Source: Struthio camelus
Taxonomy: Eukaryota
Assembly: GCF_040807025.1 (NCBI RefSeq)
Contig: NC_090973.1
Location: 935,107 to 981,852, forward strand
Length of the DNA: 46,746 bases
Reading direction: 5' to 3'
Shown here: positions 14,501 to 44,289 of the stretch, in pieces
How the letters are laid out: every line of letters begins with the position of its first letter
How positions within the stretch are numbered: the stretch's first letter is position 1
Position numbers and translations under genes: made by a program
Notes under the pieces: generated by a model
Seen by the model: only the letters and a program-made list of their open reading frames with translations
The model's database searches: none
Told to the model about the DNA's origin: nothing

Positions 14501-14505
14501 CCCAG

Positions 14506-14631: not shown

Positions 14632-14639
14632 GTGCCCGG

Positions 14640-15614: not shown

Positions 15615-15773
15615 GAGGGGACGGAGGTGCGGCGGCGGGCGGGCGAGCGCTGGCTGGCCCGCGGCCCCCTCGAGTACGTGCCGCCGGCCGAGGTGGCCGT
15701 GCTGGAGCGGCGCCGCGCCGTGGCCCTGGGCGAGGGCGAGGGCATCTACGTGCGCGACGTCCGCACCGGCAAG
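15615..15773 (+). CDS. MVP: MVP coding exon 8 [53 protein letters not shown]
   Basis: Matches human ..[42 protein letters not shown]. Donor gcaag|GTCAGA at 15773/15774. The 5' boundary is ambiguous. The phase-0 acceptor gtgcccag|GAG (15614/15615) gives a linker similar in length to human. An alternative phase-0 acceptor, aacag|GGC at 15515/15516, would add about 33 Gly/Arg-rich residues. Confidence 0.65.
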
Positions 15774-15779
15774 GTCAGA

Positions 15780-18545: not shown

Positions 18546-18550
18546 CGCAG

Positions 18551-18789
18551 GTGCGGGCGGTGGTGGGCCAGACCTACATGCTGACGGCGACGGAGGAGCT
18601 GTGGGAGAAGGAGCTGGCGCCCGGCGTGGAGGCGCTGCTGGCGGCCTCCCGCGACCCCCTGGTCCAGCGCGGGGACGGCGAAGGGGACGGCGCCCCGGCG
18701 GGGCCGCGTGACCGCACGCGGGCCGTCACCTTCCGCGTGCCCCACAACGCCGCCATGCAGCTCTACGACTACCGCGAGCGGCGCGCCCG
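18551..18789 (+). CDS. MVP: MVP coding exon 9 [79 protein letters not shown](R)
   Basis: Acceptor ccggcgcag|GTG. Colinear with human [30 protein letters not shown]...RVPHNAAVQVYDYREKRAR. Donor gcccg|GTGAGC, phase 2. Confidence 0.9.
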
Positions 18790-18794
18790 GTGAG

Positions 18795-21170
18795 CGCGGG
18801 GACGTGGGGGGCGTGGGGGGCCTGGGGGATGCTGGAGACGTTGGGGACGTTGAGGACATGGAGGATGTTGGGGATATTGGGGACGTTGGGGGCGTGGGGG
18901 ACATTGGGGATGCTGGAGACGTTGGGGACGTTGAGGACATGGGGGATGTTGGGGATATTGGGGACGTTGGGGGCGTGGGGGACATTGGGGACGCTGGAGA
19001 CATTGGGGACGTTGAGGACATGGGGGATGTGGGGGATATTGGGGACGTTGGGGGCGTGGGGGACATTGGGGAAGCTGGAGACGTTGGGGACGTTGAGGAC
19101 ATGGGGGATGTGGGGGATATTGGGGACATTGGGGGCGTGGGGGACATTGGGGAGACAGGACGTTGGGGGCCTGGGGGACGTTGGGGACGCTGGAGACATT
19201 GGGGACGTTGAGGACATGGAGGATGTTGGGGATATTGGGGACATTGGGGAGACAGGACGTTGGGGGCCTGGGGGACGTTGGGGATGCTGGAGATGTTGGG
19301 GACGTTGAGGACATGGAGGATGTTGGGGATATTGGGGACGTTGGGGGCGTGGGGGACATTGGGGATGCTGGAGACGTTGGGGACGTTGAGGACATGGGGG
19401 ATGTTGGGGATATTGGGGACGTTGGGGGCGTGGGGGACATTGGGGACGCTGGAGACATTGGGGACGTTGAGGACATGGGGGATGTGGGGGATATTGGGGA
19501 CGTTGGGGGCGTGGGGGACATTGGGGAAGCTGGAGACGTTGGGGACGGTGAGGACATGGGGGATGTGGGGGATATTGGGGACATTGGGGGCGTGGGGGAC
19601 ATTGGGGAGACAGGACGTTGGGGGCCTGGGGGACGTTGGGGACGCTGGAGACGTTGGGGACGTTGAGGACATGGGGGATGTGGGGGATATTGGGGACGTT
19701 GGGGGCATGTTGAGGACACCAGGGGTGTTGGGGACATTGGGCACATGGAGGATGCTGGGAACCCTGAGGATGTTGGGGAGAAAGGGGACATTTGGGACAC
19801 GGGGGACATTGGGGATGCTGGAGACGTTGAGGACATCAGTGATGTTGAGGGCATGAGGATGTTGGAGACTTCAGGGACATCGGGGATGTTGGGTCATTGG
19901 GCACGCTGAAGATGGGGGTATTGGGGACACTGAGGATATTGGGGACATGGGGGGTATTGGGGACATTGAGGACATCAGGGATGTCACGGACGTTGGAGAT
20001 ATTGAGGATGTTGGAGACGTTGAGGCTATCAGGGACGTTGGGGACACTGAGGATACTGGGGATGAGGGACATCGGGGATGTTGGGCACATGGAGGACATC
20101 AAGGATTTTGGGGACACTGAGGATGTTGGGGACATTGGGGGCCTAGGGGATATTGTGGACAGTGAGGATGTTGGGCATATGGGGGACAATTGGGACATTG
20201 GGGACATGAGGGATGTGGGGGACATGGGGGCCATCAGGGCTGTGGAGGCCATGGAGGATGTTGAAGGTGTTGGGACCATGGGAGACATCAGGGACACAGG
20301 GAAGAGCAGGGCCGTGGAAGCCATGGGAGATGCTGGAGGTGGTGGGACCCCAGGGGGACGTCGTGGACGTGGGGAAGAGCAGGGCCATGGAAGCCATGGG
20401 AGATGGTGGAGGTGGTGGGACCCCGGGGGGACGTTGTGGATGTGGGAAAGAGCAGGGCCGTGGAAGCCATGGGAGATGCTGGAGGTGGTGGGACCCTGGG
20501 GGGACGTCGTGGATGTGGGGAAGAGCAGGGCCGTGGAAGCCATGGGAGATGCTGGAGGTGGTGGGACCCCAGGGGGACGTCGTGGACGTGGGGAAGAGCA
20601 GGGCCGTGGAAGCCATGGGAGATGCTGGAGGTGGTGGGACCACAGGGGACGTCGTGGATGTGGGGAAGAGCAGGGCCGTGGAAGCCATGGGAGATGCTGG
20701 AGGTGGTGGGACCCCAGGGGGACGTCGTGGATGTGGGGAAGAGCAGGGCCGTGGAAGCCATGGGAGATGCTGGAGGTGGTGGGACCCTGGGGGGACGTCG
20801 TGGATGTGGGGAAGAGCAGGGCTGTGGAAGCCATGGGAGATGGTGGAGGTGGTGGGACCCCGGGGGGACGTCATGGACGTGGGGAAGAGCAGGGCCGTGG
20901 AAGCCATGGGAGATGGTGGAGGTGGTGGGACCCCGGGGGGACGTCATGGACGTGGGGAAGAACAGGGCCGTGGAAGCCATGGGAGATGCTGGAGGTGGTG
21001 GGACCCCGGGGGGACGTCATGGACGTGGGGAAGAGCAGGGCCGTGGAAGCCATGGGAGATGGTGGAGGTGGTGGGACCCCGGGGGGACGTCATGGACGTG
21101 GGGAAGAGCAGGGCCGTGGAAGCCATGAGAGATGCTGGAGGTGGTGGCACCCCGGGGGGACGTCCGGGGC
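18795..21170 (+). repeat. MVP intron 9: 15/30-bp ggggacgttggggacattggggatgctggagac minisatellite with an about 120-bp higher-order repeat (18795-20290), then a 60-75-bp gggaagagcagggccgtggaagccatgggagatgctggaggtggtgggacc repeat (20290-21170)
   Basis: gaagccatgggagatg recurs at 20318, 20388, 20466, 20537, 20608 and onward. Confidence 0.85.
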
Positions 21171-21199
21171 CCCCCGTGACGGCGCCGGCGGGCCGGCAG

Positions 21200-21397
21200 G
21201 GTGGTGCTGGGCCCCGAGCTGGCCCTGCTGGCGCCGGGCGAGCAGCCCACGGTGCTGTCGCTGTCGGGTGGCCGGCCCAAGCGCCCGCACGCCCGCCGCG
21301 CCCTCTGCCTCCTGCTGGGCCCCGACTTCTGCGCCGACCTGGTGGCCATCGAGACGGCCGACCACGCCCGCCTCCAGCTCCAGCTGGCCTACAACTG
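21200..21397 (+). CDS. MVP: MVP coding exon 10 (R)[65 protein letters not shown](W)
   Basis: Acceptor ggccggcag|G completes the Arg codon. Matches human [66 protein letters not shown]. Donor aactg|GTGGGC, phase 2. Confidence 0.9.
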
Positions 21398-21419
21398 GTG
21401 GGCGGGGCTTCAGGGACGG

Positions 21420-22095
21420 GGCGGGGTCTTCTAGGGGAGGTGGAGCCAAGGGAGCAGGGCGGGGTGGGGTGGGGCTTGAGGTGGGGCGGGGCTTGTGGTG
21501 GGTGGGGCTTGGGGGTGGACCCATGGCGGAGCCGGGGGCGGAGCTTATCACGGTGGGGGCTTATCACGGTGGGGGATTGGGGCAGTGGGGCTGGGCCGCC
21601 CCCCCTGGCTGGGGAGCGGGGTGGGCGTGGCTTTACAGGAGGGGCGTGGCTTGGAGGGAGGGGGCGGGGTCTGCATGGGGGGTGGATTTGCTGCAGGGGT
21701 GTGTGGGGGGAGGGGTGGTGCACCAGGGAAGGGGCGTGGTGCAAGGGGGCGGAGCTCCCGCTTGGGGTGCTCGGGGGCGTGGCCAAGGTGATGGGGGCGT
21801 GGCCAAGGCGATGGGGGGCGTGGCCAGGGGAGGGGCTGGGGCTGCGGTTCCTACCAAGGGGCCGAGGCTGGGAGGGGAGGGCGGGAAGGGGGCGTGGCCA
21901 GGTGATGGAGGGGAGGGCGTGGCCTGTCCTTTGGGGGGCGTGGCCTGGCCTTTGGGGGCGTGGCCTGGCGGTGGAGGGGGCGTGGCCGGAGGCTGTGGTT
22001 GCTGCCAAGGGGCCAAGGCTGGTAGAGGGGTGGGAAGGGGGCGTGACCGGGTGGCGGCGGGGGCGTGGCCAAGCGGGGAGGGGGCGTGGCCTGAG
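21420..22095 (+). repeat. GGGGCGTGGCC (Sp/KLF GC-box-like) repeat cluster in MVP intron 10
   Basis: More than 15 copies of ggggcgtggcc(a/t)gg with irregular 20-60-bp spacing. Confidence 0.75.
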
Positions 22096-22115
22096 CGGCC
22101 CCGCCCCCTCCCCAG

Positions 22116-22254
22116 GCACTTTGAGGTGCCGGAGTCGCCGGCGGAGCTGGGGCGGCTCTTCAGCGTCCCCGACTTCGTGGGCGACGCCTGCAAGGCCCTG
22201 GCCTCCCGCGTGCGCGGCGCCGTCGCCGCCGTCTCCTTCGACGACTTCCACAAG
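22116..22254 (+). CDS. MVP: MVP coding exon 11 (W)[46 protein letters not shown]
   Basis: Acceptor ccctccccag|G completes the Trp codon. Matches human [48 protein letters not shown]. Donor caag|GTGGCG. Confidence 0.9.
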
Positions 22255-22259: not shown

Positions 22260-24365
22260 GCCCGTCCCGCGTCACCCCGCGTCACCCCGCGTCACCCCGC
22301 GTCCTCCCAGGTCACCCCGTGTCCTCCCGGGTCACCCCGTGTCATCCTGGGTCATCCCGCGTCATCCCACGTCCCCACCTCGTCCTGGGTCACCCCAGGC
22401 CACCCCGTGTCACCCCGTGTCCTCCCGGCTCACCCCGTGTCATCCTGGGTCATCCCGCGTCATCCCGGGTCATCCCGCGTCATCCCACGTCCCCACCTCG
22501 TCCTGGGTCACCCCGTGTCATCCTGGGTCACCCCACGTCATCCCACGTCCCCCACCTCATCCCGGGTCACCCCGTGTCATCCTGGGTCATCCCGCATCAT
22601 CCCACGTCCCCACCTCATCCTGGGTCACCCCAGGCCACCCCGTGTCACCCCGTGTCATCCTGGGTCACGCCGTGTCCTCCCGGCTCACCCCGTGTCATCC
22701 TGGGTCATCCCGCGTCATCCCACATCCCCACCTCGTCCTGGGTCACCCCAGGCCACCCCGTGTCACCCCGTCTCATCCTGGGTCACCCCTTGTCCTCCCG
22801 GCTCACCCCGTGTCATCCTGGGTCATCCCGCATCATCCCATGTCCCCACCTCGTCCTGGGTCACCCCGTGTCCTCCCATGTCACCCCGTGTCCTCCCAGG
22901 TCACCCCATGTCCTCCCGGCTCACCCCGTGTCATCCTGGGTCATCCCGCGTCATCCCACGTCCCCACCTCGTCCTGGGTCACCCCAGGCCACCCCGTGTC
23001 ACCCCGTGTCATCCTGGGTCACCCCGTGTCCTCCCGGTTCACCCCGTGTCACCCCGTGTCATCCTGGGTCATCCTGCGTCATCCCACATCCCCACCTCGT
23101 CCTGGGTCACCCCAGGCCACCCCGTGTCACCCCGTGTCATCCTGGGTCACCCCTTGTCCTCCCGGGTCACCCTGTGTCATCCTGGGTCACCCCACGTCAT
23201 CCCACGTCCCCCACCTCGTCCCGGCTCACCCCAGGCCACCCCGCGTTGTCCCACGTCCTCCTATGTCACTACCTGTCATCCCCGCGTCACCCCCCTGGTG
23301 ACACCTCGCGCCAGCCCACGTCATTCCTGCCCGTCCCCGTGCCCCCGCTGCCCCCCAACGTCCCTCTGTCCTTGTGTCCCCTGAGCTCCCTGTGTGCCCC
23401 ATGTCCCCGACGTCCCTGAGGTTGCCCAATGCCATCTGCAATGTCCTCGATGTCCCCTGATGTCCCCAGTGTCCCCAACACCCCCAATGTTTTCAATAGG
23501 CCCGATGTCCCCTAACGTCCCTGATGTCCCCTAACATCCCCGATGTCCTCAATGCCCCCAGCATCTCCAGTGTTGCTGATGTCCCCAATGTCCCCAGTGT
23601 CCCCAATGCCCCATTTTCAACGGCCCCCATGTCCCGACACCCCCGATGTCCTCAGCGCCCCCAACATCTCCAACGTCCCTGATCTGCTCGATGCCGCCGA
23701 CATCTTCAGGGTCCCCCATGTCCCCTGACATCCCCGATGTCCTCGGCGCCCCCAACATCTCCAACGTCCCTGATCTGCTCGATGCCGCCGACATCTTCAG
23801 GGTCCCCCATGTCCCCTGACATCCCCGATGTCCTCGGCGCCCCCAACATCTCCAACGTCCCTGATCTGCTCGATGCCGCCGACATCTTCAGGGTCCCCCA
23901 TGTCCCGACACCCCCGATGTCCTCAGCGCCCCCAACATCTCCAACGTCCCTGATCTGCTCGATGCCGCCGACATCTTCAGGGTCCCCCATGTCCCCTGAC
24001 ATCCCCGATGTCCTCAGCGCCCCCAACATCTCCAACGTCCCTGATCTGCTCGATGCCGCCGACATCTTCAGGGTCCCCCATGTCCCCTGACATCCCCGAT
24101 GTCCTCGGCGCCCCCAACATCTCCAACGTCCCTGATCTGCTCAATGCCGCCGACATCTTCAGGGTCCCCCATGTCCCCTGACATCCCCGATGTCCTCGGC
24201 GCCCCCAACATCTCCAACGTCCCTGATCTGCTCGATGCCGCCGACATCTTCAGGGTCCCCCATGTCCCCTGACATCCCCGATGTCCTCGGCGCCCCCAAC
24301 ATCTCCAACGTCCCTGATCTGCTCGATGCCGCCATCTTCAGGGTCCCCCATGTCCCCTAACATCC
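22260..24365 (+). repeat. MVP intron 11: gtcaccccgtgtcatcctgggtcatcccgcgtcatcccacgtccccacctcgtcctgg family (22260-23300), then a 91-bp unit with about 9 copies (23400-24365)
   Basis: The 91-bp unit is gtcccctgacatccccgatgtcctcggcgcccccaacatctccaacgtccctgatctgctcgatgccgccgacatcttcagggtcccccat. It recurs at 23720, 23811, 23901, 23991 and 24082. Confidence 0.85.
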
Positions 24366-24447: not shown

Positions 24448-24659
24448 AACTCGAACCGGGTGATCTGCTCGGCCGTGTTCGGCTTCGACGAGGGCGGGCG
24501 CCTGCGCGAGCGCCTCCGCTTCGCCCCCAACGGGCTGGTGGTGACCAGCGTCGACATCCAGAGCGTGGAGCCCGTGGACCAGCGCACGCGCGACGCCCTC
24601 CAGCGCAGCGTCCAGCTCGCCATCGAGATCGCCACCAACTCCCAGGAGGCCGCCGCCAG
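24448..24659 (+). CDS. MVP: MVP coding exon 12 [70 protein letters not shown](R)
   Basis: Acceptor ctgccgtccccag|AAC. Matches human NSARIIRTAVFGF...[44 protein letters not shown]. Donor gccag|GTCCTG, phase 2. Confidence 0.9.
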
Positions 24660-26051: not shown

Positions 26052-26168
26052 GCAGGAGGCGGAGCGGCTGGCGCAGGAGGCCCGCGGCCGCCTCGAGCGC
26101 CAGCGCCTCCTCGACCAGGCCGAGGCCGAGCGGGCGCGCCGGGCGCTGCTCGAGCTCGAGGCCCTCAG
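26052..26168 (+). CDS. MVP: MVP coding exon 13 (R)[38 protein letters not shown](S)
   Basis: Acceptor gcgtcccccag|G. Matches human [39 protein letters not shown]. Donor ctcag|GTGAGC. Confidence 0.9.
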
Positions 26169-27655: not shown

Positions 27656-27782
27656 CGCGGCGGTGGAGAGCGCGGGGGCGGCGCGGGCCGAGGCGCAGGC
27701 GCGGGCCGAGGCCGCCCGCATCGAGGGCGAGGCCGCCATCCTGCAGGCCAAGCTCAAGGCCGAGGCCGCCGCCATCGAGGCG
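27656..27782 (+). CDS. MVP: MVP coding exon 14 (S)[42 protein letters not shown]
   Basis: Acceptor cccccggcag|C. Matches human [42 protein letters not shown]. Donor gcg|GTGCGT at 27782/27783, phase 0. Confidence 0.85.
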
Positions 27783-28575: not shown

Positions 28576-28764
28576 GAGGCGGAGCTGGCGCGGCTGGAGC
28601 GCGCGCAGGCGCAGGAGCTGCGGGTGCAGCGGGCGCGGGCGGAGGCGGAGGCGGCGCATGCGCAGGCCATGGCCGAGGTGGAGGGCGCGCGCGTGCGCGA
28701 CGTGGCCACCGCCCTCGGCCCCGACGTCATCCGCGACATCGCCCGCGCCGGGCCCGAGCTCCAG
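28576..28764 (+). CDS. MVP: MVP coding exon 15 EAELARLERAQAQELRVQRARAEAEAAHAQAMAEVEGARVRDVATALGPDVIRDIARAGPELQ
   Basis: Acceptor ccgtcgcgcag|GAG. Colinear with human [63 protein letters not shown]. Donor ccag|GTGGGC. Confidence 0.9.
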
Positions 28765-29255: not shown

Positions 29256-29393
29256 GTGAAGCTGCTGCAGGGCCTGGGGCTGCAGTCGACGCTCATCACC
29301 GACGGCGCCGCCCCCCTCAACCTCTTCGCCACCGCCCGGGGGCTGCTGGGGCTGGTCCCGCCCCCCGGCCCCGCCCCCGGCCCCGCCCCCTGA
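29256..29393 (+). CDS. MVP: MVP terminal coding exon [45 protein letters not shown] (TGA at 29391-29393)
   Basis: Acceptor tgtcccgcag|GTG. Matches human [33 protein letters not shown]. The stop is followed 22 nt later by AATAAA. Confidence 0.9.
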
Positions 29394-29414
29394 GCGGCCC
29401 CGCCCCCCGAGCGC

Positions 29415-29420
29415 AATAAA
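29415..29420 (+). terminator. MVP: MVP polyadenylation signal AATAAA (3' UTR only about 40-50 nt)
   Basis: Canonical AATAAA lies 22 nt after the TGA. A GT-rich stretch follows at 29440-29465. Confidence 0.75.
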
Positions 29421-29424
29421 GGCG

Positions 29425-30010
29425 GCCGTGACGTCATGGCGGTGGTGTCCTAGCTTTGTGGGGGGGGGGGGGAAGGGGCTGTGATGTCACCACGCTGGGG
29501 ACACGGCAGCTGTGATGTCATAGTCCCGGGGGGCGGGGCTTGTGCACTCAGTGGGTGGGCTGGCAGGGCTGTGATGTCACGGGGGGGGTGGGCGGGCTGC
29601 TGGCTATGATGTCACAGCTCCGGGGGCCCGAGAGGGTTGGGGCGGGACGCTCGGGTGTGACATCATTGGGCTGGGGGGGTGGGGCTGTGATGTCACAGAG
29701 CGGAGCGATGTCAGGCTGGGGAGTGATGTCGTCAGGCCCAGGTGTGACGTCATCGGGCCGGGGCGTGGCGTCGTGGGGCCGGGGTGTGACGTCATCGGGC
29801 TAGGTGTGACGTCATCCGGTCCGGGCGCGATGCCATCGAGGTGCAGCAGCGTGCCGTGGGGCTGGGGCGTGACATCATCGGGCCGAGTGTGACATCAGTG
29901 GGGCCAGGTGTGATGTCATCGAGCCAGAGCGTGAGCTCATGGCGCCTGGGCATGACGTTATTGGGCCCGGATGTGACCTAGTCGGGCCGGGCGTGATGTC
30001 ACGGGGCCGA
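29425..30010. promoter_or_regulatory. Tandem array of about 22 units of a 22-bp repeat GGGYGTGAYGTCAYCGGGCC carrying CRE palindromes (TGACGTCA) or their CpG-decayed variants
   Basis: Perfect TGACGTCA at 29429-29436, 29745-29752, 29787-29794 and 29807-29814. The other units carry TGATGTCA, TGACATCA or TGACCTCA. Confidence 0.7.
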
Positions 30011-30229
30011 GGTGTGACCTCATGGGGCGGGGGGGGGGGCGGCGCGGGGGCCCCGGACGCCTGGGTCCCCAAGCAGGAGGCGGGGCCGGAGCTCCCGAAG
30101 GCTCTTTTAATACTGAGGTTATTGCTGCTGCGCGGGGGCACCCCGGGGGCCCAGGCGTCCCCGGGGCCGGGGGGCTGCTACGGTCCTGGGGACCCCCGGG
30201 GACACCCGAGGGGGCTCGTGGGGACCCGG

Positions 30230-31990
30230 GGACGGGGACGGGGCTGCTACTGTGCTGGGGGCACCCGAGGGTGGGTGCTGGGGGATGGTCACCACCTGCA
30301 GGACGCCCTAAGGTGGGTCCCAGGCACCCTGGGGGCACCCAAGGGTGGTCCTGGGGGATGGTCACCACCTGCAGGACGCCCTAAGGTGGGTCCCAGGCAC
30401 CTTGGGGGCACCCAAGGGTGGTCCTGGGGGATGGTCACCACCTGCAGGACGTCCCAAGGTGGGTCCCAGGCACCCTGGGGGCACCCAAGGGTGGGTGCTG
30501 GGGGATGGTCACCACCTGCAGGATGCCCCAAGGTGGGTGCCGGGCACCCTGGGGGCACCCAAGGGTGGGTGCTGGGGGATGGTCACCACCTGCAGGACGC
30601 CCCAAGGTGGCTCCCGGGCACCCTGGGGGCACCCGAGGGGGCTCCTGGGGGATGGTCACCACCTGCAGGACACCCTAAGCTGGGTCCCAGGCACCCTGGG
30701 GGCACCCGAGGGGGCTCCTGGGGGATGGTCACCACCTGCAGGACGCCCCAAGGTGGGTCCCGGGCACCCTGGGGGCACCCGAGGGGGCTCCTGGGGGATG
30801 GTCACCACCTGCAGGACACCCTAAGCTGGGTCCCAGGCACCCTGGGGGCACCCGAGGGGGCTCCTGGGGGATGGTCACCACCTGCAGGACGCCCCAAGGT
30901 GGGTCCCGGGCACCCTGGGGGCACCCGAGGGGGCTCCTGGGGGATGGTCACCACCTGCAGGACACCCTAAGCTGGGTCCCAGGCACCCTGGGGGCACCCA
31001 AGGGGGCTCCTGGGGGATGGTCACCACCTGCAGGACGCCCCAAGGTGGGTGCCGGGCACCCTGGGGGCACCCAAGGGTGGGTGCTGGGGGATGGTCACCA
31101 CCTGCAGGACGCCCCAAGGTGGGTCCTGGGCACCTTGGGGGCACCCGAGGGGGCTCCTGGGGGATGGTCACCACCTGCAGGACGCCCCAAGGTGGGTGCC
31201 GGGCACCTTGGGGGCACCCGAGGGGGCTCCTGGGGGATGGTCACCACCTGCAGGACGCCCTAAGGTGGGTCCCGGGCACCTTGGGGGCACCCAAGGGTGG
31301 GTGCTGGGGGATGGTCACCACCTGCAGGACGCCCCAAGGTGGCTCCCGTGCACCCTGGGGGCACCCGAGGGGGCTCCTGGGGGATGGTCACCACCTGCAG
31401 GACGCCCCAAGGTGGGTCCCGGGCACCTTGGGGGCACCCAAGGGGGCTCCTGGGGGATGGTCACCACCTGCAGGACACCCTAAGGTGGGTCCCGGGCACC
31501 TTGGGGGCACCCAAGGGTGGTCCCGGCAGACCCTGGTGACCCCCAGGAGCATTTTTCGGGGATGCCCCTGACTCTGGGAACACCCAAGGATGCTCCCAGT
31601 AGATGGTCACCACCCTTGTGACAGCTATGGGTGCTCTTAGGGGACACTGGAGACACCCTTGGGTGCTCCTAGGAGATGGCCACCACCCTGGAGACACTCT
31701 ACAGTGGTTCCTGGGCACCCTGGGGACACCCAAGAGTACTCTTAGGAGACAGCCACCACTCTGGTGACACCCATGGGTGCTCCGGATGGACCTTGAAGAC
31801 ACCCTTGGGTGCTTCTAGATGACCACCTCCCAGGTGACACCCATGGGTGCTCCGGAGGGACCCTGGAGACACCCAAAGGTGCTTCTAGATGAGCATCACC
31901 CAGGTGACACCCAAGGGTGCTCTTAGAAGCCAGTCACTGCCCTGAGGACATCCCATGGTGGGTCCTGGGCACCCTGGGGACACCCAAGGG
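30230..31990. repeat. Intergenic 73-bp tandem repeat, about 17 homogeneous copies (30230-31500) then diverged copies. Each unit contains the E-box CACCTGCAGG.
   Basis: Unit: ggatggtcaccacctgcaggacgccccaaggtgggtcccgggcaccctgggggcacccgagggggctcctggg. Confidence 0.9.
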
Positions 31991-32125
31991 TGCTCCTGAG
32001 GATCCCGCCACACCCCCCCCCCCCACCCCAGGAGCTCCTCGTACCTCCTTTTCTCCCTCCCAAGCGTCGAGCACCCCCGGGCGGCCCAGCGAGCGGGCGG
32101 CAGCACCCCGGGGTGCCGGGCGGCG

Positions 32126-32386
32126 TCAGGGGGGCGCCGGGGGCCGGAAGAGGCGCCAGGCGCCGCGGCAGATGAGGCCGAACCAGTAGAGCTGGGGGGC
32201 GAGGAGGGCGGCGGCGGCGGCGTTGTAGGCGGCCGGCAGCGCCGCCGGCACCCGCAGCAGCGGCAGCCCCGCGTGGCGCCCGTAGGCCCAGTACAGGTAG
32301 GGGAACAGCAGCACCCGGCACCCGAAGAAGGTCACCAGCATGGCCAGGCCGTTGAGCTTGTGCAGCGCCGTGTGCTGCCGCTTGTA
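32126..32386 (-). CDS. TLCD3B: TLCD3B terminal coding exon [86 protein letters not shown] (stop = plus TCA at 32126-32128)
   Basis: Minus-strand acceptor ccccggcag|TAC. Matches human [82 protein letters not shown]. Confidence 0.85.
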   Translation of the reverse strand, partial: [86 protein letters not shown]

Positions 32387-32399
32387 CTGCCGGGGCGAC

Positions 32400-35197
<2,798 letters not shown>

Positions 35198-35417
35198 GGC
35201 GGCCACGGGGAAGCAGACGAGCACCATGGCGGCGTGGTGGAGCACCATGAGCAGGTCCTTGCGGAGGTAGGCGGCGGTGGCGGCCCGCAGCGAGGGCGGT
35301 GGCCCGGCCTCGTGGCCCTTGACGCGACCCCGGTGCCAGTGGCAGAGGAACATGGCGTAGACGTCGTAGATGAAGTAGGGCACCGCGAACTCCGGGTAGG
35401 CGCCCGCCAGCCAGTGC
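35198..35417 (-). CDS. TLCD3B: TLCD3B coding exon 3 (Q)HWLAGAYPEFAVPYFIYDVYAMFLCHWHRGRVKGHEAGPPPSLRAATAAYLRKDLLMVLHHAAMVLVCFPVAA
   Basis: Minus-strand acceptor ccggcgcag|G. Matches human HWLSSAYTQFAVPYFIYDIYAMFLCHWHKHQVKGH...YLHKEFLMVLHHAAMVLVCFPLSVV, including the TLC-domain HH motif. Donor gccgcc|GTGAGTGAGG, phase 0. Confidence 0.85.
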
Positions 35418-35419
35418 CT

Positions 35420-37010
35420 GCGCCGGGAGAGGGACCCAGGTGTCCGGGGAGGGACCCAGGTGTCCGGGGAGGGACCCAGGCGTCCGGGAGGGACCCAGGC
35501 ATCCGGGAAGGACCCAGGAGTCCGGGCAGGGACCCAGGTGTCCGGGCAGGACTGAGGCATCCGCATCCACTACCCTGGTTTTACTCAACCCATTGGAGCT
35601 CTCCAAAGGGGCCCAGGCATCCGGGCGCTGCCCCTTGCCCCCCACCCCCACCCCAAGGGGCCCAGATGTCCGGGCGCTGCCCCTTCCCCCCCACCCCCAC
35701 CCCAAGGGGCCCAGGCGTCCAGGCGCGCCGGGCTAATCCCCCACCCCCACCCCGCCCGCCAAGGGCAAAGCCTAGAGAGAGGGCCCAGGCGTCCGGCTCT
35801 CCCCTCCCCCAGCCCCAAGGGACCCAGGCGTCCGGGCGCTGCCCTCCTCCGCCCCCCCCCCCCCCGCTTCGCTCGGAAGGGCCCAGGCGTCCAGGCGCTG
35901 CCCTCCTCCCTCCCCCCCCAACCTCGGGCTCAGAAGGGCCCAGGCGTCCGGGCGCGCCAGGCTAATCCCCATCTGCTCAGTGGCTAATCCCCGCCAAGGG
36001 CAGAGCCGAGAGGGCCCAGGCGTCCGGGCGCTGCCTCTCCCCCCCCCAACCTCGGGCTCAGAAGGGCCCAGGCATCCGGGTGCTGCCCCTCCCCCACCCT
36101 GCTCAGAAAAGGGCCCAGGCGTCCGGGCGCTGTCCAGTGCTGAAGGGCGGCCGGCGCCGGGAAGGGAGGGGACGGGGACCCTGTGGGTGCCCTTGGGGGT
36201 CCCCAGGGGCCATGTGGGTGCTGTGGGGTGGGTGTAGGGGCACCGTGGGGCAGGGTGGCACCCACGGGTCACGGTGGCACCCACAGTTTGGGGTAGCACC
36301 TATGGGTCATGGTGGCACCCACGAGTTGTGGTGACCCCCATGGGCCACGGTGGCACCCATGGGCCATGGTGACACCCACAGTTTGGGGTGACCCCCATGG
36401 GTCACGGTGGCACCCATGAGTCATGGTGGCACCTATGGGTCATGGTGGCACCCACGAGTTGTGGTGACCCCCATGGACCACGGTGGCACCCATGGGCCAT
36501 GGTGACACCCACAGTTTGGGGTGACCCCCATGGGTCACGGTGGCACCCATGAGTCATGGTGGCACCTATGGGTCATGGTGGCACCCACGAGTTGTGGTGA
36601 TCCCCATGGGTCACGGTGGCGCCCATGGGCCATGGTGGCACCTATGGGTCATGGTGGCACCCACGAGTTGTGGTGATCCCCATGGGTCACGGTGGCACCC
36701 ATGGGCCATGGCGATACCCACAGTTTGGGGTGGCACCTATGGGTCACGGTGGCACCCATGGGCCATGGTGGCACCCACAGTTCGAGGTGACATCCATGCG
36801 TCATGGTGGCACCCATGGCTTGTGGTGGCATCCATGGGCCACGGTGGCACCCGTTGGTCATGATGCCACCCACGGGGCATGGTGGCACCCACAGGCTATG
36901 GTGACACCCACGGGTTGTGGTGGCACCTATGAGTCACAGTGGCACCTATGGGCCATGGTGACACCCACGGGTCGTGGTGGCACCCATGGGTCATGATGGC
37001 ACCCACGGGT
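35420..37010. repeat. TLCD3B intron 2: gggacccaggtgtccgggga / gggcccaggcgtccgggcgctgcc repeats (35420-36130), then a 19-20-bp ggtggcacccatgggtcac minisatellite (36180-37010)
   Basis: Direct tandem recurrence. These share the GGCCCAGGCGTCCGGG core with the arrays at 32400-33425 and 44900-46746. Confidence 0.85.
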
Positions 37011-37032
37011 GCCCAGGCCAGGCCGTACTCAC

Positions 37033-37116
37033 TGGTCATCGATGACATGGTGGCAGGAGCTGGAGATGATGTATCCGGCCGTGGTGGCCATGATGGCCTG
37101 CACCGAGGACACCAGC
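37033..37116 (-). CDS. TLCD3B: TLCD3B coding exon 2 (R)LVSSVQAIMATTAGYIISSSCHHVIDD(Q)
   Basis: Minus-strand acceptor ccccccag|G and donor gacca|GTGAGTACGG. Matches human LVSSVQAIMASTAGYIVSTSCKHIIDDQ. Confidence 0.8.
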
Positions 37117-37129
37117 CTGGGGGGGGGGG

Positions 37130-39350
37130 GGACACGGGGACGTCAAGGGACATCGAGGGACGGGGACGTTGGGGACATGAGGGGACGGGGCCCTGAGCGG
37201 GTGGCAGCCACCCCTGCGGCCACCCCCCGCTGCCACTTGTCCCCAGCCCTGTCCCCAAGCTGCTGCCATCCCTGTCCCCACGGTCCTCGCGGTGTCCCCG
37301 TCCCCACGTTGTCTCCACAATGTCCCCGGCTGTCTCCATGTTGTCCCCATGCCATCCCTGTCCCTGTCCCCTCGCTGTCCCCATTCCCCCGTGTCCCCAT
37401 CCCTGTCACTGTCCCCTCATTGTCCTTGTTCCCTCATTGTCCCCGTCCCCACAGTGTCCCCAGCCCTGTCCCCGTCCCCTCATTGTCCCCACACCGTCCC
37501 CCTCCCCAGTGTCCCCATCCCGGTCGCTGTCCCGTCACCGTCCCCACGACGTCCCCGTCCCCATAGTGTCCCCAACCCCTCATTGTCCCCATCCCCATCC
37601 CCTCATTGTCCTCTCGTTGTCTCCGTCCCCACGGTGCCCCTGTCCCTGTCCCCTTGTTGTCCCCACGCTGTCCCCGTCCCCTTGTTGTTTCTGTCCCCTC
37701 CTTGTCCCCTTGTTGTCCCCATGCCGTGTGTGTCCCTGTCCCCGTCCCCTCAGTGTCCCCTTGTTGTCCCCGTCCCCTCACTGTCCCCCCAGTGTCCTCT
37801 CCTTGTCCCCATCCCCTCCCCATCCCACTGTTGTCCCTGTCCCCTCAGTGTCCCTGCCCTCAGTGTCCCCCCACCCCCTCAGTGTCCCCTGTGTCCCCTC
37901 CCCATCTCCTCAGTGTCCCCACACCGTCCCCGTCTCCTCAGTGTCCCCTCAGTGTCCCCACCCTCTCCCCCTGCCCTCATTGTCCCCCCTGTCCCCTCAG
38001 TGTCCCCACACTGTCCCCATCCCCTCAGTCTCCCCTCACTGTCCCCATCCCCTCCCCGCCCTCCCCGTCCCCTCAGTGTCCCCTCAATGTCCTCACATTG
38101 TCCCCATCACCCTGTTGCCCCCTCAGTGTCCCCTCAGTGTCCGCCCGTGTCCCCATCCCTCCACCCCCCCGTTGTCCCCTCAGTGTCCCCACACTGTCCT
38201 CATCTCCCATCCCCTCCCCGTCCCCCCAGTGTCCCCATCCCTTCCCCCATCCCCACCCCGTCCCCTCAGGGTCCCCACACCGTCCCTGTCCCCTCAGTGT
38301 CCTCTCAGTGTCCCCATCCCCCTGTTGTCCCCTCAGCGTCCCCCCCATGCCCTCAGTGTCCCCACACTGTCCCCGTCCCCCCTCCCCTCCCCGCAGTGTC
38401 CCCTCAGTGTCCCCCTCCCCCGTCCCATCAGTGTCCCCTCAGTGTCCCCTCAGTGTCCCCTCAGTGTCCCCATCCCCTCCCCCATCCCCACACTGTTCCC
38501 ATCCCCCCCCAGTGTCCCCACACTGTCCCCGTCCCCTCAGTGTCCCAATCGCCCCCTCAGTGTCCCAATCGCCCCGTTGTCCCCTCAGTGTCCCCATCCC
38601 CCCTCAGTGTCCCCTCAGTGTCCCCATCCCCTCCCCCATCCCCACACTGTCCCCATCCCCCCCCAGTGTCCCCACACTGTCCTCGTCCCCTCAGTGACCC
38701 AATCGCCCCGTTGTCCCCTCAGTGTCCCCCTCCCCCGTCCCCTCAGTGTCCCCTCAGTGTCCCCTCAGTCCCCCCATCCCCTCCCCCGTCCCCTCAGTCC
38801 CCCCCTCCCCCCGTTGTCCCCTCAGTGTCCCCATCCCCTCCCCCCTCCCCTCAGTGTCCCCTCAGTGTCCCCATCCCCTCCCCCCCTCAGTGTCCCCTCA
38901 GTGTCCCCCTCCCCCCTCCCCTCAGTGTCCCCTCAGTGTCCCCCATCCCCTCCCCCCTCCCCTCAGTGTCCCCTCAGTGTCCCCATCCCCTCCCCCGTCC
39001 CCTCAGTGTCCCCCCATCCCCTCAGTGTCCCCCTCCCCCATCCCCTCAGTGTCCCCTCAGTGTCCCCATCCCCTCCCCCCCTCAGTGTCCCCTCAGTGTC
39101 CCCATCCCCTCCCCCGTCCCCTCAGTGTCCCCTCAGTGTCCCCCTCCCCCTCCCCCCATCCCCTCAGTGTCCCCTCAGTGTCCCCCTCCCCCTCCCCCCA
39201 TCCCCTCAGTGTCCCCTCAGTGTCCCCCTCCCCCCTCCCCTCAGTGTCCCCTCAGTGTCCCCTCAGTGTCCCCCTCCCCCATCCCCTCAGTGTCCCCCTC
39301 CCCCCCTCCCCTCAGTGCCCCCCCGTCCCCTCCTCGCCCCCCCCCCACCC
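37130..39350. repeat. C-rich 24-30-bp minisatellite (tgtccccatcccctcagtgtcccctcag family), about 2.2 kb, filling TLCD3B intron 1
   Basis: Continuous recurrence of cctcagtgtcccc. The plus strand is Pro/Ser-codon-like, which explains the long artefactual ORFs here. Confidence 0.85.
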
Positions 39351-39356
39351 CGGTAC

Positions 39357-39493
39357 CGGGCGGCGACGATGACGGCGTCGGGCTCGGGCCAGCGCAGCCC
39401 CGGCAGCCGCCGCAGCCCGGCCCGGGCCGCCAGGAAGAGCCCGGGGAAGAAGACGAAGCCGCCGGCCAGCAGGGCACCCGGGGGGGCCGCCAT
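39357..39493 (-). CDS. TLCD3B: TLC domain-containing protein 3B (FAM57B), coding exon 1: MAAPPGALLAGGFVFFPGLFLAARAGLRRLPGLRWPEPDAVIVAA(R)
   Basis: Minus-strand ATG (plus CAT at 39491-39493). Matches the human TLCD3B N-terminus M..VAGGVVFPGLFLLSKNTLQRLPQLRWEEADAVIVSAR. Donor cccg|GTACCG on the minus strand, phase 2. Confidence 0.8.
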
Positions 39494-39499: not shown

Positions 39500-40900
39500 G
39501 GGGGGGCGGGGGGCGGGGGGGGGCACAGGGACCTGCCCGGCCCGGCCCGGCCCGCCGGCCCCGCCGGGAGCGACGCTGGGGGCGGGGCCTGAGGGGGGCG
39601 GGGCAACAGAGGGGGCGGGGTCTGAGGGGGGCACAGGGACCTGCCCGGCCCGCCGGCCCCGCCGGGAGCGACGCTGGGGGCGGGGCCTGAGGGGGGCGGG
39701 GCTTGAGGGGGCGGGGTCTGAGGGGGGGCACAGGGACCTGCCCGGCCCGGCCCGGCCCGCCGGCCCCGCCGGGAGCGACGCTGGGGGCGGGGCCTGAGGG
39801 GGGCGGGGCTTGAGGGGGCGGGGTCTGAGGGGGGCACAGGGACCTGCCCGGCCCGGCCCGGCCCGCCGGCCCCGCCGGGAGCGACGCTGGGGGCGGGGCC
39901 TGAGGGGGGCGGGGTCTGAGGGGGCGGGGTCTGAGGAGGGGCACAGGGACCTGCCCGGCCCGCCGGCCCCGCCGGGAGCGATGGTGGGGGCGGGGCCTGA
40001 GGGGGGCGGGGCCTGAGGGGGGCGGGGTCTGAGGGGGGTGGGGTCTGAGGGGGGCACAGGGACCTGCCCGGCTCGGCCCGGCCCGCCGGCCCCGCCGGGA
40101 GCGACGCTGGGGGCGGGGCCTGAGGGGGGCGGGGTCTGAAGGGGGCGGGGTCTGAGGGGGGGCACAGGGACCTGCCCGGCCCGCCGGCCCCGCCGGGAGC
40201 GACGCTGGGGGCGGGGCCTGAGGGGGGCGGGGTCTGAGGGGGCGGGGTCTGAGGGGGGCACAGGGACCTGCCCGGCCCGCCGGCCCCGCCGGGAGCGACG
40301 CTGGGGGCGGGGCCTGAGGGGGGCGGGGCCTGAGGGGGCGGGGCCTGAGGGGGGGGGCACAGGGACCTGCCCGGCCCGCCGGCCCCGCCGGGAGCGATGG
40401 TGGGGGCGGGGCCTGAGGGGGGTGGGGCCTGAGGGGGGGGCACAGGGACCTGCCCGGCCCGCCGACCCCGCCGGGAGCGATGCTGGGGGCGGGGCCTGAG
40501 GGGGGCGGGGCCTGAGGGGGGGCACAGGGACCTGCCCGGCCCGGCCCGGCCCGCCGGGAGCGACGCTGGGGGCGGGGCCTGAGGGGGGCGGGGTCTGAAG
40601 GGGGCGGGGTCTGAAGGGGGGCACAGGGACCTGCCCGGCCCGGCTCCGCCCTGCCGGAAGCAATGCTGGGGGGGGTCTGAATGGGGGCGGGGCCTGAGGG
40701 GGGCGGAGTCACAGGGGGATGCAGGGACCTGCCTGGCCCTGCCGGGAGTGATGCTGGCGGCGGGGCCATGGGGCGGGGTCACAGGGGGTGGGGCCTAAGG
40801 GGGCGGGGGGCTACCTGGCCCGGCCCGGCCCTGCCTTGGGGGTGACCCTGGGGGCGGGGCCTAAAGGGGGCGGGGCCTAAAGGGGGCGGGGCGTGAGGGC
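39500..40900. repeat. About 105-bp tandem repeat, about 13 copies, rich in GC-boxes (GGGGCGGGGCCTGAGGGG), immediately upstream of the TLCD3B ATG (5' UTR or proximal promoter)
   Basis: cacagggacctgcccgg recurs at 39525, 39633, 39730, 39837, 39944, 40055, 40164, 40260, 40360, 40443, 40524, 40623 and 40716. Confidence 0.9.
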
Positions 40901-42477: not shown

Positions 42478-42612
42478 CGCCTCCCCCCCCCCTCAAAACC
42501 AGGCCCTCGCGGCCTGGCCCGTTTCCACGGTTACCCGGAGCCTGCCGGCAGTTTGGGGGGGGCCAGGCCCCTCCCCGGCGCCCAGGCCAGGGGCCGGCGG
42601 GGGCGGGGGGGG

Positions 42613-42732
42613 CTATTTTTAGCCCCCGAAAAGGCCAGGGGTCGGCGGAAAGGTCGCCGGGGGGGGGGGAGGCCCTAGATAAGGGGCGGCGCTGGGGGGC
42701 CGGGGGGCAGCGGGACCCGGCGCTGCCCCACG
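42613..42732 (+). promoter_or_regulatory. Candidate muscle-type alternative promoter and non-coding first exon. It has a MEF2/TATA-like CTATTTTTAG (42613-42622) and a GATA motif AGATAA (42677-42682). The exon would end at donor cacg|GTGAGT (42732/42733).
   Basis: The only A/T-rich MEF2 consensus in a GC-rich context. It is followed about 110 nt later by a perfect GTGAGT donor. Compatible with an ALDOA-like pM exon. Confidence 0.3.
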
Positions 42733-42779
42733 GTGAGTCGGGGGGTCCCTGCGGCCCCCTGGGGTGGGGGGGATACCCC

Positions 42780-44100
42780 CCCGTGCCCTAAATAACCCCC
42801 CTGACACCCCAAATACCCCCCTGACACCCCCCTGGGCAGCTCTATAACCCCCCCCAGCACCCTAAATACCCCCCCGGCACCCCCATATCCCCCTCAACAC
42901 CCCAAATACCCCCCTGACACCCCAAATACCCCCCTGACACCCCCCTGGGCAGCTCTATACCCCCCCAGCACCCTAAATACCCCCCCTGGCACCCCCATAT
43001 CCCCCTCAACACCCCAAATACCCCCCTGGCACCCCAAATGCCCCCCTGGCACCCCCCCCGGCAGCCCTATACCCCCCCTGGCACCCCAAATGCCCCCCCG
43101 GCACCTCTCTCAGCACCCCCAAATACCCCCCCCGACACCCCCCTGGGCAGTCCTATACCCCCCTGGCACCCCAAATACCCCCCTGACACCCCCCCCGGCA
43201 CCCCAAATACCCTCCAGGGCTCCCCCAAATGCCCACCCAGGATCACATATACCCCCCTAGACCCCCCGCAAATACTCCGTGGGACCCCCTAAATACCCAC
43301 CCAGGACCCTATATGTCCTCCTAGACCCCCCAAATACTCCCTCAGCACCCCAAATACCCTCCCTGACCCCCCCAAATATCCCCTGAGACCCCCAAATTCC
43401 CCTCTGGAATGCCAACTACCACCCAGGACCCCATATACTCCCCTAGACCCCCTCAAATAACCCCCTGTGACCCCCCAAATACCCACCCAGGACCCCAAAT
43501 ACTCACCCAGGACCCCATACGCTCCTGTAGACCCCCCCCAAATAACCCCCAGGACCCCCCCAAATACCCACCCAGGACCCCAAATATCCCCAAATAACCC
43601 CCCTAGACCCCCCAAATTCCCCCCCAGGACCCCAAATACACCCCTAGACCCCCCCCAAATAACCCCAGGACCCCCAAATCCCCCCCAGGACCCCAAATAC
43701 CCATCCAGGACCCCAAATACCCCCTTAGACCCCCCCAAATAACCCCCAGGACCCCCCAAATACCCACCGAGGACCCCAAATGCCCCCCAGACCTCCCAAA
43801 TAACCCCTGGGACCCCCAAATACCCACCCAGGACCCCCTATTACCCCCAGACTCCCCCCAAATAACCCCCGAGACCCCCAAATCCCCCCCAGGACCCCAA
43901 ATACCCACCTAGGACCCCCCTAAACCCCCAAATAACCCCTGGGGCCCCCAAATCCCCCCCAGGACCCCAAATACCCACCTAGGACCCCCCTTAAACCCCC
44001 CCAAATAACCCCTGGGACCCCCAAATCCCCCCCAGGACCCCAAATACCCACCTAGGACCCCCCTAAACCCCCAAATAACCCCCGGGACCCCCCCCAATTC
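42780..44100. repeat. 20-30-bp minisatellite ccccaaatacccccctgacacc / cccaggaccccaaatacccac
   Basis: Continuous recurrence of ccaaata(c/a)cc. Confidence 0.85.
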
Positions 44101-44143
44101 CCCCCCGGGACCCCAATCCCCCCCGTCCCCCCCCCCCGCGCGG

Positions 44144-44266
44144 TGACTCAGCGCTCGGCGGCGCGGCCCCTTTAAGCGCCCCCCTCGCCCCTCCCGCCGC
44201 TTCCTCTGACGTCACAGCCCCCCCCCCGCACCGCACGCGCGCGCCGCAGCCTCGGCGCGAGACCAG
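44144..44266 (+). promoter_or_regulatory. Candidate promoter and non-coding first exon. It has AP-1 TGACTCA (44144-44150), TTTAAG (44171-44176) and CRE TGACGTCA (44207-44214). The exon would end at donor accag|GTGGGG (44266/44267).
   Basis: A unique, non-repetitive GC-rich island between two satellite arrays, with canonical motifs and a donor. No ORF is present. Confidence 0.3.
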
Positions 44267-44289
44267 GTGGGGCCCGGGGGGGGGGGCGG

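Follow-up and report, generated by a model that had tools for sequence, protein, structure and literature searches.

Convergent MVP and TLCD3B genes in the ostrich: a gene neighbourhood that is very probably ancestral to bony vertebrates

In human and mouse, the genes of the 16p11.2 BP4-BP5 region are arranged in the order PAGR1-MVP-CDIPT-SEZ6L2-ASPHD1-KCTD13-TMEM219-TAOK2-HIRIP3-INO80E-DOC2A-C16orf92-TLCD3B-ALDOA, and approximately ten genes and 200 kb separate MVP from TLCD3B in mammals. A pangolin product that is named DOC2A was found to be a TLCD3B protein, and this misnaming hints at an adjacency of DOC2A and TLCD3B in a mammal. A human deletion of 118 kb covers only MVP, CDIPT, SEZ6L2, ASPHD1 and KCTD13 (PMC11568765). 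Gene order was described as not conserved relative to human in the zebrafish 16p11.2 paper. In birds, the dot chromosomes display "sequence stuttering" and "exon stuttering" (PMC12954441, Genome Biol Evol 2026); the same study assigned ALDOA, PPP4C and MAZ to chicken chr38, where MAZ and ALDOA lie 1.7 Mb apart.

Here, a stretch of 46,746 nucleotides of the ostrich (Struthio camelus) genome was analysed at its full length (the window), in which MVP on the plus strand and TLCD3B on the minus strand converge with a stop-to-stop interval of 2,732 bp (29394-32125). The preliminary description of this DNA had placed the two genes tail to tail about 2.7 kb apart, and this was borne out, as both gene models are intact and the interval is free of gaps and of genes. 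On its 3' side, MVP is followed directly by TLCD3B, which confirms that the ostrich arrangement departs from the human order. The coding features are as follows.

1132 to 29393, plus strand: MVP coding region, 16 coding exons, 848 aa
1132-1250, 5898-6093, 11595-11718, 11805-11936, 13021-13115, 13198-13434, 14506-14631, 15615-15773, plus strand: MVP exons 1 to 8
18551-18789, 21200-21397, 22116-22254, 24448-24659, 26052-26168, 27656-27782, 28576-28764, 29256-29393, plus strand: MVP exons 9 to 16
32126 to 39493, minus strand: TLCD3B (FAM57B) coding region, 5 exons, 265 aa, from tblastn and an exon model, with a TLC domain (PF03798)
39493-39357, 37116-37033, 35417-35198, 33533-33438, 32386-32126, minus strand: TLCD3B exons, with canonical splice sites

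MVP was placed on its strand by tblastn. In the 16-exon model, all introns are GT-AG, the 848-aa frame is open, and the TGA stop occupies 29391-29393 within the last exon. The Pfam domains Vault, Vault_2/3/4 and MVP_shoulder were detected, and solved MVP structures found in a PDB search aligned with the model from end to end (1272 bits). Over residues 71-918 of XP_068779312.1, the Struthio camelus major vault protein of RefSeq, the model matches at 100% identity; this RefSeq protein forms a one-member cluster in the protein collection. The TLCD3B stop codon lies at 32126-32128 on the minus strand, and the best database matches of the protein were bird TLCD3B/FAM57B proteins (86-92% identity). 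The exact 265-aa ostrich protein was absent from the protein collection searched, and a complete gene model is therefore supplied here. The human MVP, TLCD3B, ALDOA, CDIPT, KCTD13 and KIF22 probes served for exon location only; gene identities were subsequently confirmed by the Pfam, PDB and database searches. Both genes proved to be intact multi-exon orthologues, with their best matches among birds and reptiles.

The interval between the stop codons had been described as holding only repeat arrays. Tandem repeats (Tandem Repeats Finder, TRF) do make up 67% of it, but both poly(A) signals and a probable TLCD3B 3'UTR of approximately 2 kb are also located there.

29415 to 29420, plus strand: AATAAA, the poly(A) signal of MVP, which begins 22 nt past the stop
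29429 to 30030, no strand assigned: CpG-rich array of 21-35-bp units in tandem, which occupies the stretch from one poly(A) site to the other, with a CRE-like octamer TGAYRTCA per unit
30106 to 30111, minus strand: ATTAAA, the poly(A) signal of TLCD3B (plus-strand reading TTTAAT), the sole minus-strand poly(A) signal in the interval
30090 to 32125, minus strand: probable TLCD3B 3'UTR of about 2.0 kb, its extent taken from the conserved poly(A) signal

The position of its AATAAA only 22 nt after the stop indicates that the MVP 3'UTR is very short; at the turtle locus, a poly(A) signal (TTTATT on the locus plus strand) likewise lies 15-20 nt beyond the MVP gene end. The ATTAAA of TLCD3B and its flanks are invariant in an alignment of ostrich, swan, crane and falcon, and a 16-nt inverted repeat (arms 30055-30070 and 30145-30160) brackets the signal. 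The TLCD3B 3'UTR would extend approximately 2 kb to this conserved signal, and since both poly(A) signals and this 3'UTR lie in the interval, the two transcript ends, predicted near 29440 (plus strand) and 30085 (minus strand), would be only about 0.65 kb apart. Within the 3'UTR, a 73-bp unit is repeated 17.2 times at 30255-31523; TRF gave 93% matches and a higher-order period of 220 bp for this array, and degenerate 70-bp copies continue from it to about 31990. A 28-nt core of the 73-bp unit has a single match in swan, which lies a short way upstream of the poly(A) signal of the swan TLCD3B. No match to Rfam families or tRNA genes was returned for the window.

Comparison with other vertebrates, which the preliminary description had proposed, revealed the ostrich arrangement in turtle, skink and frog. 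In the turtle Mauremys reevesii (CM027979.1), TLCD3B on the plus strand ends at 23659 and MVP on the minus strand starts at 27562, leaving 3.9 kb with no called gene. In the skink Tiliqua scincoides (CM068528.1), the corresponding positions are 15353 and 19293, again convergent, 3.9 kb apart and with no called gene between. In the frog Nanorana parkeri (KN906227.1; 26332 and 33683), the convergent genes are 7.4 kb apart, with no called gene and four N runs in the interval. A tblastn search on the DNA of all three loci confirmed this, as the exons for the C-terminal part of MVP were found opposite the C-terminal exon of TLCD3B. Between the ostrich spacer and those of the three species, no sequence conservation was found beyond short GC-rich motifs.

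The two genes are also consecutive in two teleosts, by the order of locus tags and GenBank accessions alone, which says nothing on orientation or on unannotated genes between them. In the tarpon Megalops atlanticus, TLCD3B is MATL_G00011600 (KAG7492231.1) and MVP is MATL_G00011610 (KAG7492232.1), with CDIPT at MATL_G00011580; in the bonefish Albula goreensis, TLCD3B is AGOR_G00093850 (KAI1896346.1) and MVP is AGOR_G00093860 (KAI1896347.1), with CDIPT at AGOR_G00093830. CDIPT is two locus tags from TLCD3B in conger, moray and Synaphobranchus as well. The sterlet locus had no neighbour gene within 10 kb. The tail-to-tail loci of turtle, skink and frog, together with the consecutive locus tags of tarpon and bonefish, therefore place the origin of the adjacency before the divergence of bony vertebrates.

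These results make it very probable that the ostrich genes are true single-locus orthologues which converge by ancestral bony-vertebrate microsynteny, that the order seen in human and mouse originated on the branch leading to mammals, and that no local deletion or rearrangement took place in the ostrich. Parsimony assigns the ancestral state to the ostrich and the change to the mammalian branch. The convergent pair would have been retained in teleosts, frog, squamate, turtle and ostrich, while on the mammalian branch the block from CDIPT to DOC2A and C16orf92 would have come to lie between MVP and TLCD3B. The ostrich interval itself would then consist of a minimal MVP 3'UTR, a stuttered CRE-like array of about 0.6 kb, and a TLCD3B 3'UTR of about 2 kb that was enlarged by local tandem duplication, through the same "sequence stuttering" that also fills the introns on both sides. 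The polarity of the synteny inference is thereby corrected, with the human 16p11.2 order as the derived one and the ostrich neighbourhood as the ancestral one. The finding is otherwise ordinary and already known, and matters little beyond housekeeping.

The preliminary description had attributed the adjacency to loss or relocation of the intervening block in the ostrich lineage, or to a local rearrangement. A deletion or relocation of the CDIPT-DOC2A block in the ostrich or bird lineage, joining MVP and TLCD3B, has several observations in its favour. KCTD13 and DOC2A are listed as missing in all birds and SEZ6L2 as missing in Galliformes and Anseriformes (Galloanserae) (PMC12954441, supplementary tables); there was no bird protein among the 120 best CDIPT matches, and tblastn found neither CDIPT (turtle and monitor probes) nor KCTD13 (human probe) coding sequence in the window. 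However, the adjacency in turtle, skink, frog and two teleosts is older than birds, which contradicts a bird-lineage origin and the cause first suggested. CDIPT was, moreover, found in turtles, squamates and frogs. In Nanorana and Varanus, it is on a contig of equal size to the MVP/TLCD3B contig, which is presumably one and the same scaffold, yet it does not separate the two genes; in Lerista, a skink, 23 locus tags lie between CDIPT and MVP; and at the turtle, skink and frog loci that were examined, it lies outside the MVP-TLCD3B interval. Chicken RNA-seq has also yielded CDIPT (PMC5470226). Birds are thus reported to have lost some genes of the block that intervenes in human, but the adjacency is older than birds and was not caused by those losses. 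We consider this explanation very unlikely.

Slightly less probable still is an assembly artefact, a false junction of two unrelated contigs within the tandem arrays at 29.4-32.0 kb. The interval is prone to mis-joining, being 67% tandem repeat and including a 1.27-kb array at 93% identity, and other bird assemblies carry different DNA downstream of TLCD3B. Against this, the whole window is free of N runs, and no gap or join signature was observed in 29400-32100, where the preliminary description had allowed for an assembly join. Toward TLCD3B, the 73-bp array grades into degenerate copies, the pattern to be expected of an array that grew where it stands. Next come, in the expected order, the poly(A) signal of TLCD3B that the four birds share and the CRE-like motif, with MVP directly beyond, which matches turtle, skink and frog. 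The least probable alternative, that the locus is a segmental duplicate or retrocopy (which had also been raised) with the "real" genes at another place in the genome and ordered as in human, has nothing positive for it other than the absence of the exact TLCD3B protein from the protein collection, and is opposed by the full intron sets, canonical splice sites and open frames of both genes, so that neither is a retrocopy, by the identity of the MVP product to the RefSeq ostrich protein, and by the resemblance of the TLCD3B 5' side to the ALDOA side of crane and falcon.

The adjacency is not universal among birds, since MVP was not seen within 10 kb downstream of TLCD3B in the swan, crane and falcon assemblies, all three neognaths. 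In swan, a KIF22-like kinesin lies downstream of TLCD3B on the same strand; this assignment comes from a precomputed Pfam architecture (Kinesin plus a weak HHH_3 match), and the human KIF22 probe matched the swan kinesin weakly, in its first exons only. In crane and falcon, TLCD3B is followed by a shared 52-bp array and then by CR1 or AT-rich DNA. The difference in these three birds may be a real neognath rearrangement or an assembly error. In the long-read assembly of a palaeognath, by comparison, the region is resolved, whereas several neognath assemblies have it broken or rearranged.

On the 5' side of TLCD3B, the preliminary description had reported a head-to-head CpG island followed by candidate ALDOA-like first exons. 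The CpG-rich region is present, with a GC content of 0.84-0.86 and a CpG o/e of 0.60-0.65 at 39500-40500. No ALDOA coding exon was found in the window, even by word-size-2 tblastn of exon 1, and any ALDOA-like sequence there is at most non-coding.

39545 to 40745, no strand assigned: CpG-island-like region 5' of TLCD3B, GC 0.78-0.86, with 83-98-bp tandem units that carry GGGGCGGGGCC boxes
42555 to 46056, plus strand: region weakly collinear with the ALDOA 5' flank and 5'-UTR region of crane and falcon, without an ALDOA coding exon

More broadly, 39.5-46.1 kb of the window showed weak collinearity (65-76% identity, repeat-rich) with the TLCD3B-ALDOA spacer and the ALDOA 5' region of crane and falcon, in which ALDOA is annotated head to head with TLCD3B. 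The ostrich ALDOA is therefore probably also head to head with TLCD3B. The window ends inside an array of 40 copies of a 37-bp unit (45236-46746).

The array between the two 3' ends has a 21-bp period by TRF and a CpG o/e of up to 0.97. Its stretch 29429-30001 holds four full TGACGTCA octamers and ten of the form TGATGTCA or TGACATCA; the palindromic TGACGTCA is the consensus of the CRE (CREB/ATF site). Fourteen of the 15 TGAYRTCA matches of the window fall inside the array, where shuffling gives an expectation of 0.76 for the whole window. Because the block is a tandem array, the number of motifs in the ostrich reflects duplication and not independent selection. At the equivalent site downstream of the TLCD3B poly(A) signal, GTGACRTCAC was also found in swan (5 copies), crane and falcon. 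From motif position and copy number, it is conceivable, though doubtful, that GTGACRTCAC some 60-100 nt downstream of this signal in the four birds (14 copies in ostrich, 5 in swan) is a putative functional avian element, for instance an enhancer to which CREB/ATF binds, or an element that acts as a boundary or in termination where two genes converge, and that it marks the breakpoint at which neognaths lost the ancient MVP-TLCD3B linkage. The breakpoint reading follows from the swan, where a KIF22-like gene stands after the element instead of MVP.

Tandem repetition is not confined to the interval, as TRF covered 76% of the whole window and 72-98% of most introns longer than 1 kb. The GC content is 0.61-0.81. 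Two of the intronic arrays contain exon sequence.

6012 to 10074, plus strand: exon-derived array in MVP intron 2, with 26 occurrences of the last 40 nt of exon 2 plus the GT donor
34096 to 35233, minus strand: exon-derived array in TLCD3B intron 3, 7.3 copies of a 155-bp unit, with copies of the 3' part of exon 3 plus the donor

The copies of the MVP exon 2 end differ by two mismatches at most and are spaced 146-176 bp apart, most often 155 bp. Copies derived from TLCD3B exon 3 were also observed in crane and swan. The locus thus combines array-dominated introns in a GC-rich gene with arrays that contain exon sequence, and adds ostrich examples to the recently described sequence and exon stuttering. 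The ostrich contig which carries MVP is 4.79 Mb long. By published gene content, the segment probably belongs to a very GC-rich, repeat-rich small chromosome that is the counterpart of chicken dot chromosome 38.

MVP (plus strand) and TLCD3B (minus strand) are oriented in the ostrich locus as they are in human and mouse 16p11.2, and the head-to-head pairing of TLCD3B with ALDOA (seen in crane and falcon, and presumed in ostrich) is also alike, whereas the number of genes between MVP and TLCD3B is zero in the ostrich. The turtle, skink and frog loci share with it the two orthologues, tail to tail, and an interval without annotated genes that measures 3.9, 3.9 and 7.4 kb, respectively, and 2.7 kb in ostrich, but the ostrich spacer is far more GC-rich and more tandemly repeated. 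As in clusters of the cAMP response element (CRE, TGACGTCA), four perfect palindromic CREs occur in a CpG-rich block of 0.6 kb, and a single change, of CpG to TpG or to CpA, is all that sets the ten variants apart from TGACGTCA; the ostrich block, however, lies between two gene 3' ends and not at a known promoter. In repeat content, the locus resembles the stuttering of avian dot chromosomes, as the introns of the GC-rich ostrich genes are full of imperfect tandem arrays that derive from local sequence and measure tens to hundreds of bp; exon ends are included in some of them (MVP exon 2 and TLCD3B exon 3). The published screen was of chicken and does not name MVP or TLCD3B (PMC12954441), whereas the ostrich is a palaeognath, in which stuttering also extends to a 3'UTR and to an intergenic CRE-like element.

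In tblastn with vertebrate probes, MVP maps to the + strand of the window between about 1.1 and 29.4 kb and TLCD3B (FAM57B) to the - strand between 39.5 and 32.1 kb, and both genes were modelled exon by exon.

1132-29393, + strand: MVP coding model, 16 coding exons, all introns GT-AG, product of 848 aa
39493-39357, 37116-37033, 35417-35198, 33533-33438 and 32386-32126, - strand: TLCD3B, 5 exons, introns GT-AG, 265 aa

The MVP model protein contains Vault, Vault_2/3/4 and MVP_shoulder domains (Pfam), solved MVP chains align to its residues 2-842 (1272 bits), and it matches the ostrich (Struthio camelus) major vault protein XP_068779312.1, whose gene lies on a contig of 4,790,203 bp, at 100% identity over all 848 residues. 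At 918 aa the RefSeq ostrich MVP is longer, its start lying 70 codons before the conserved ATG at 1132. The 70 additional N-terminal residues come from translation of a 122/242-bp tandem array (window 1-1131); other MVPs lack any equivalent, and the extension is probably an artefact of annotation. The TLCD3B model protein carries a TLC domain (Pfam); its closest full-length match was the crane (86%), with partial matches of 90-92% in tinamou, swan and duck. The exact 265-aa protein was absent from a collection of 15 billion sequences in which the neighbouring MVP is present, and the ostrich annotation may lack TLCD3B or carry another model of it. The MVP TGA stop lies at 29391-29393 and the TLCD3B stop codon at 32126-32128 (- strand), so that the preliminary description was exact in both stop coordinates and in their distance of 2,732 bp. 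The window contains no N runs.

It is established that in human the genes CDIPT to DOC2A sit between MVP and TLCD3B at 16p11.2, and the short ostrich spacing had been ascribed to loss or relocation of this block, or to a local rearrangement, in the ostrich lineage. Two observations document part of the human order: a 118-kb deletion holds only MVP, CDIPT, SEZ6L2, ASPHD1 and KCTD13 (PMC11568765), and a pangolin TLCD3B protein bears the name of a DOC2A isoform. The genomic context of TLCD3B orthologues was compared in turtle, skink and frog. In the turtle Mauremys reevesii (151.7-Mb chromosome), TLCD3B (+ strand) ends at 23659 and an 852-aa Vault-domain gene lies on the opposite strand from 27562, with no gene called between them; the corresponding TLCD3B ends and Vault-domain gene starts are 15353 and 19293 in the skink Tiliqua scincoides (144.3 Mb), and 26332 and 33683 in the frog Nanorana parkeri. 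Tblastn on the locus DNA showed the C-terminal MVP exons facing the C-terminal TLCD3B exon in all three. No gaps occur in the turtle and skink loci; four N runs interrupt the frog interval.

For fish, gene order was taken from GenBank locus tags. TLCD3B and MVP carry consecutive tags in tarpon (MATL_G00011600, KAG7492231.1; MATL_G00011610, KAG7492232.1) and bonefish (AGOR_G00093850, KAI1896346.1; AGOR_G00093860, KAI1896347.1). In both fish CDIPT is two tags from TLCD3B, on the side away from MVP (MATL_G00011580 and AGOR_G00093830), and the CDIPT-x-TLCD3B spacing recurs in conger, a moray and Synaphobranchus. The contigs carrying CDIPT and MVP/TLCD3B are of the same size in Nanorana (1,318,787 bp) and in Varanus (5,994,773 bp); in the skink Lerista, 23 locus tags separate CDIPT and MVP. 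The most parsimonious reading is that MVP and TLCD3B were already adjacent in the ancestor of bony vertebrates and that the mammalian interposition of CDIPT to DOC2A is derived. The proposed change in the ostrich lineage is thus contradicted by the same adjacency in turtle, skink, frog, tarpon and bonefish; the adjacency is explained by ancestral synteny retained on an avian microchromosome with repeat stuttering. Lineage-specific deletion, relocation, duplication and mis-join were rejected. The arrangement is ordinary, and public annotations already show it.

Birds are reported to have lost part of the human block. A tBLASTn screen that included the ostrich assembly GCA_040807025.1 listed DOC2A and KCTD13 as ohnologs missing in all birds, DOC2A also in crocodilians, and recorded SEZ6L2 as absent from Galliformes and Anseriformes; it assigned all three genes to the chicken chr38 paralogon (PMC12954441). 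Chicken RNA-seq yielded CDIPT, a gene earlier predicted to be absent (PMC5470226). These losses are not the cause of the adjacency, because it is already present in frog, skink and turtle.

MVP was not found downstream of TLCD3B in the neognath assemblies examined (swan, crane and falcon), which share the TLCD3B poly(A) region followed by a homologous 52-bp array.

L003 (swan locus) 12130-22129, Cygnus olor CM030314.1: TLCD3B, then a KIF22-like kinesin

The swan kinesin (641 aa, weak HHH_3 match) lies 2.7 kb past TLCD3B on the same strand, an order that would fit either a KIF22 to MVP block inverted with respect to the ostrich or a fault of the assembly. An olfactory receptor gene lies upstream at this locus, and the swan TLCD3B model is without exons 1-2. 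After the 52-bp array come a CR1 fragment and AT-rich DNA in crane and a casein-kinase-1-like fragment in falcon, and on chicken GGswu chr38 MAZ (0.34 Mb) is far from PPP4C/ALDOA (1.99-2.11 Mb). The neognath surroundings of TLCD3B reflect either true rearrangement or assembly problems, and on the present evidence the ostrich is the bird that keeps the ancestral order.

The interval between the stops had been described as holding only repeat arrays. TRF arrays do cover 67% of it; however, it also holds two poly(A) signals and a putative TLCD3B 3'UTR. As coverage reaches 76% window-wide and 72-98% in every intron above 900 bp, repeat arrays are the general fabric of the region, where G+C is 61-81% throughout.

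29415, + strand: MVP poly(A) signal AATAAA, 22 nt past the stop
29429 to about 30030: CRE-like array, 21-35-bp units with one CRE-like octamer each
30111-30106, - strand: TLCD3B poly(A) signal ATTAAA, the sole - strand poly(A) signal of the interval
30255-31523: 73-bp x17.2 array inside the putative 3'UTR, degenerate copies to about 31990
GTGACRTCAC sites: window 29429-30030; L003 (swan) 13667-13747; L001 (crane) 15475; L002 (falcon) 13722

The turtle MVP has a poly(A) signal in a similar place. Since alignment showed ATTAAA and its flanks to be invariant across ostrich, swan, crane and falcon, TLCD3B would end near 30090, with a predicted 3'UTR of about 2 kb. A 28-nt core of the ostrich 73-bp unit has one match in swan, immediately 5' of the swan poly(A) signal, which indicates that the array is locally expanded 3'UTR sequence. 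With these predicted ends, about 0.65 kb would separate the two transcripts, filled by the CRE-like array. GTGACRTCAC occurs 60-100 nt downstream of ATTAAA in all four birds, and the CRE-like motif is expanded in ostrich (14 copies) and in swan (5). Within 29429-30001 fall 14 of the 15 window matches to TGAYRTCA, against 0.76 expected, and CpG o/e in the array reaches 0.97.

On the 5' side of TLCD3B, the CpG-rich region noted previously was recovered (39500-40500, GC 0.84-0.86, CpG o/e 0.60-0.65, composed of 83-98-bp tandem units). No ALDOA coding exon was found within the window, and the candidate ALDOA-like first exons could at most be non-coding. ALDOA is annotated head to head with TLCD3B in crane and falcon (with PPP4C too in falcon), and their TLCD3B-ALDOA spacer and ALDOA 5' region are coarsely collinear with window 39.5-46.1 kb. 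Most likely, the ALDOA coding exons start just past the right-hand edge of the window.

The 11-mer GGACGCCTGGG, read in host-gene sense, is tandem in the last TLCD3B intron (18 copies in ostrich, 5 in turtle) and recurs in the ALDOA 5' region (36 in ostrich, 2 in crane).

Copies of GGACGCCTGGG: window 32420-33418, 35475-36114 and 44956-46733; L004 (turtle locus) 23005-23300; L001 (crane) 6170-6316

These arrays represent either a single array of great age or repeated stuttering of a shared seed motif. The motif is also present in the arms of a 16-nt inverted repeat (30055-30070 / 30145-30160; 94% complementary, 74 nt apart) that brackets the TLCD3B poly(A) signal.

Periods of roughly 73-82 bp or 155 bp are found in many of the large arrays of the window.

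2410-5773: period 78/156-157
6012-10074, MVP intron 2: period 155; last 40 nt of exon 2 plus GT donor, 26 occurrences with <=2 mismatches
12167-12550: period 153
20235-21164 and 30255-31517: period 73
34096-35233, TLCD3B intron 3: 155-bp x7.3, 97% identity; 3' part of exon 3 plus donor

The MVP exon-2 copies are spaced 146-176 bp, most often 155, and the real donor is directly followed by 25 decoy 5' splice sites that match it almost perfectly. Copies derived from TLCD3B exon 3 were also found in crane (L001 12152-12614) and swan (L003 10859-11497) and in neither the turtle nor the skink locus; this stutter seems to be one that birds share. Sequence stuttering and exon stuttering have been described for avian dot chromosomes (PMC12954441), and the arrays of the ostrich window match both. 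MVP is not named in that account of exon stuttering, and the ostrich exon-2 array fits the pattern.
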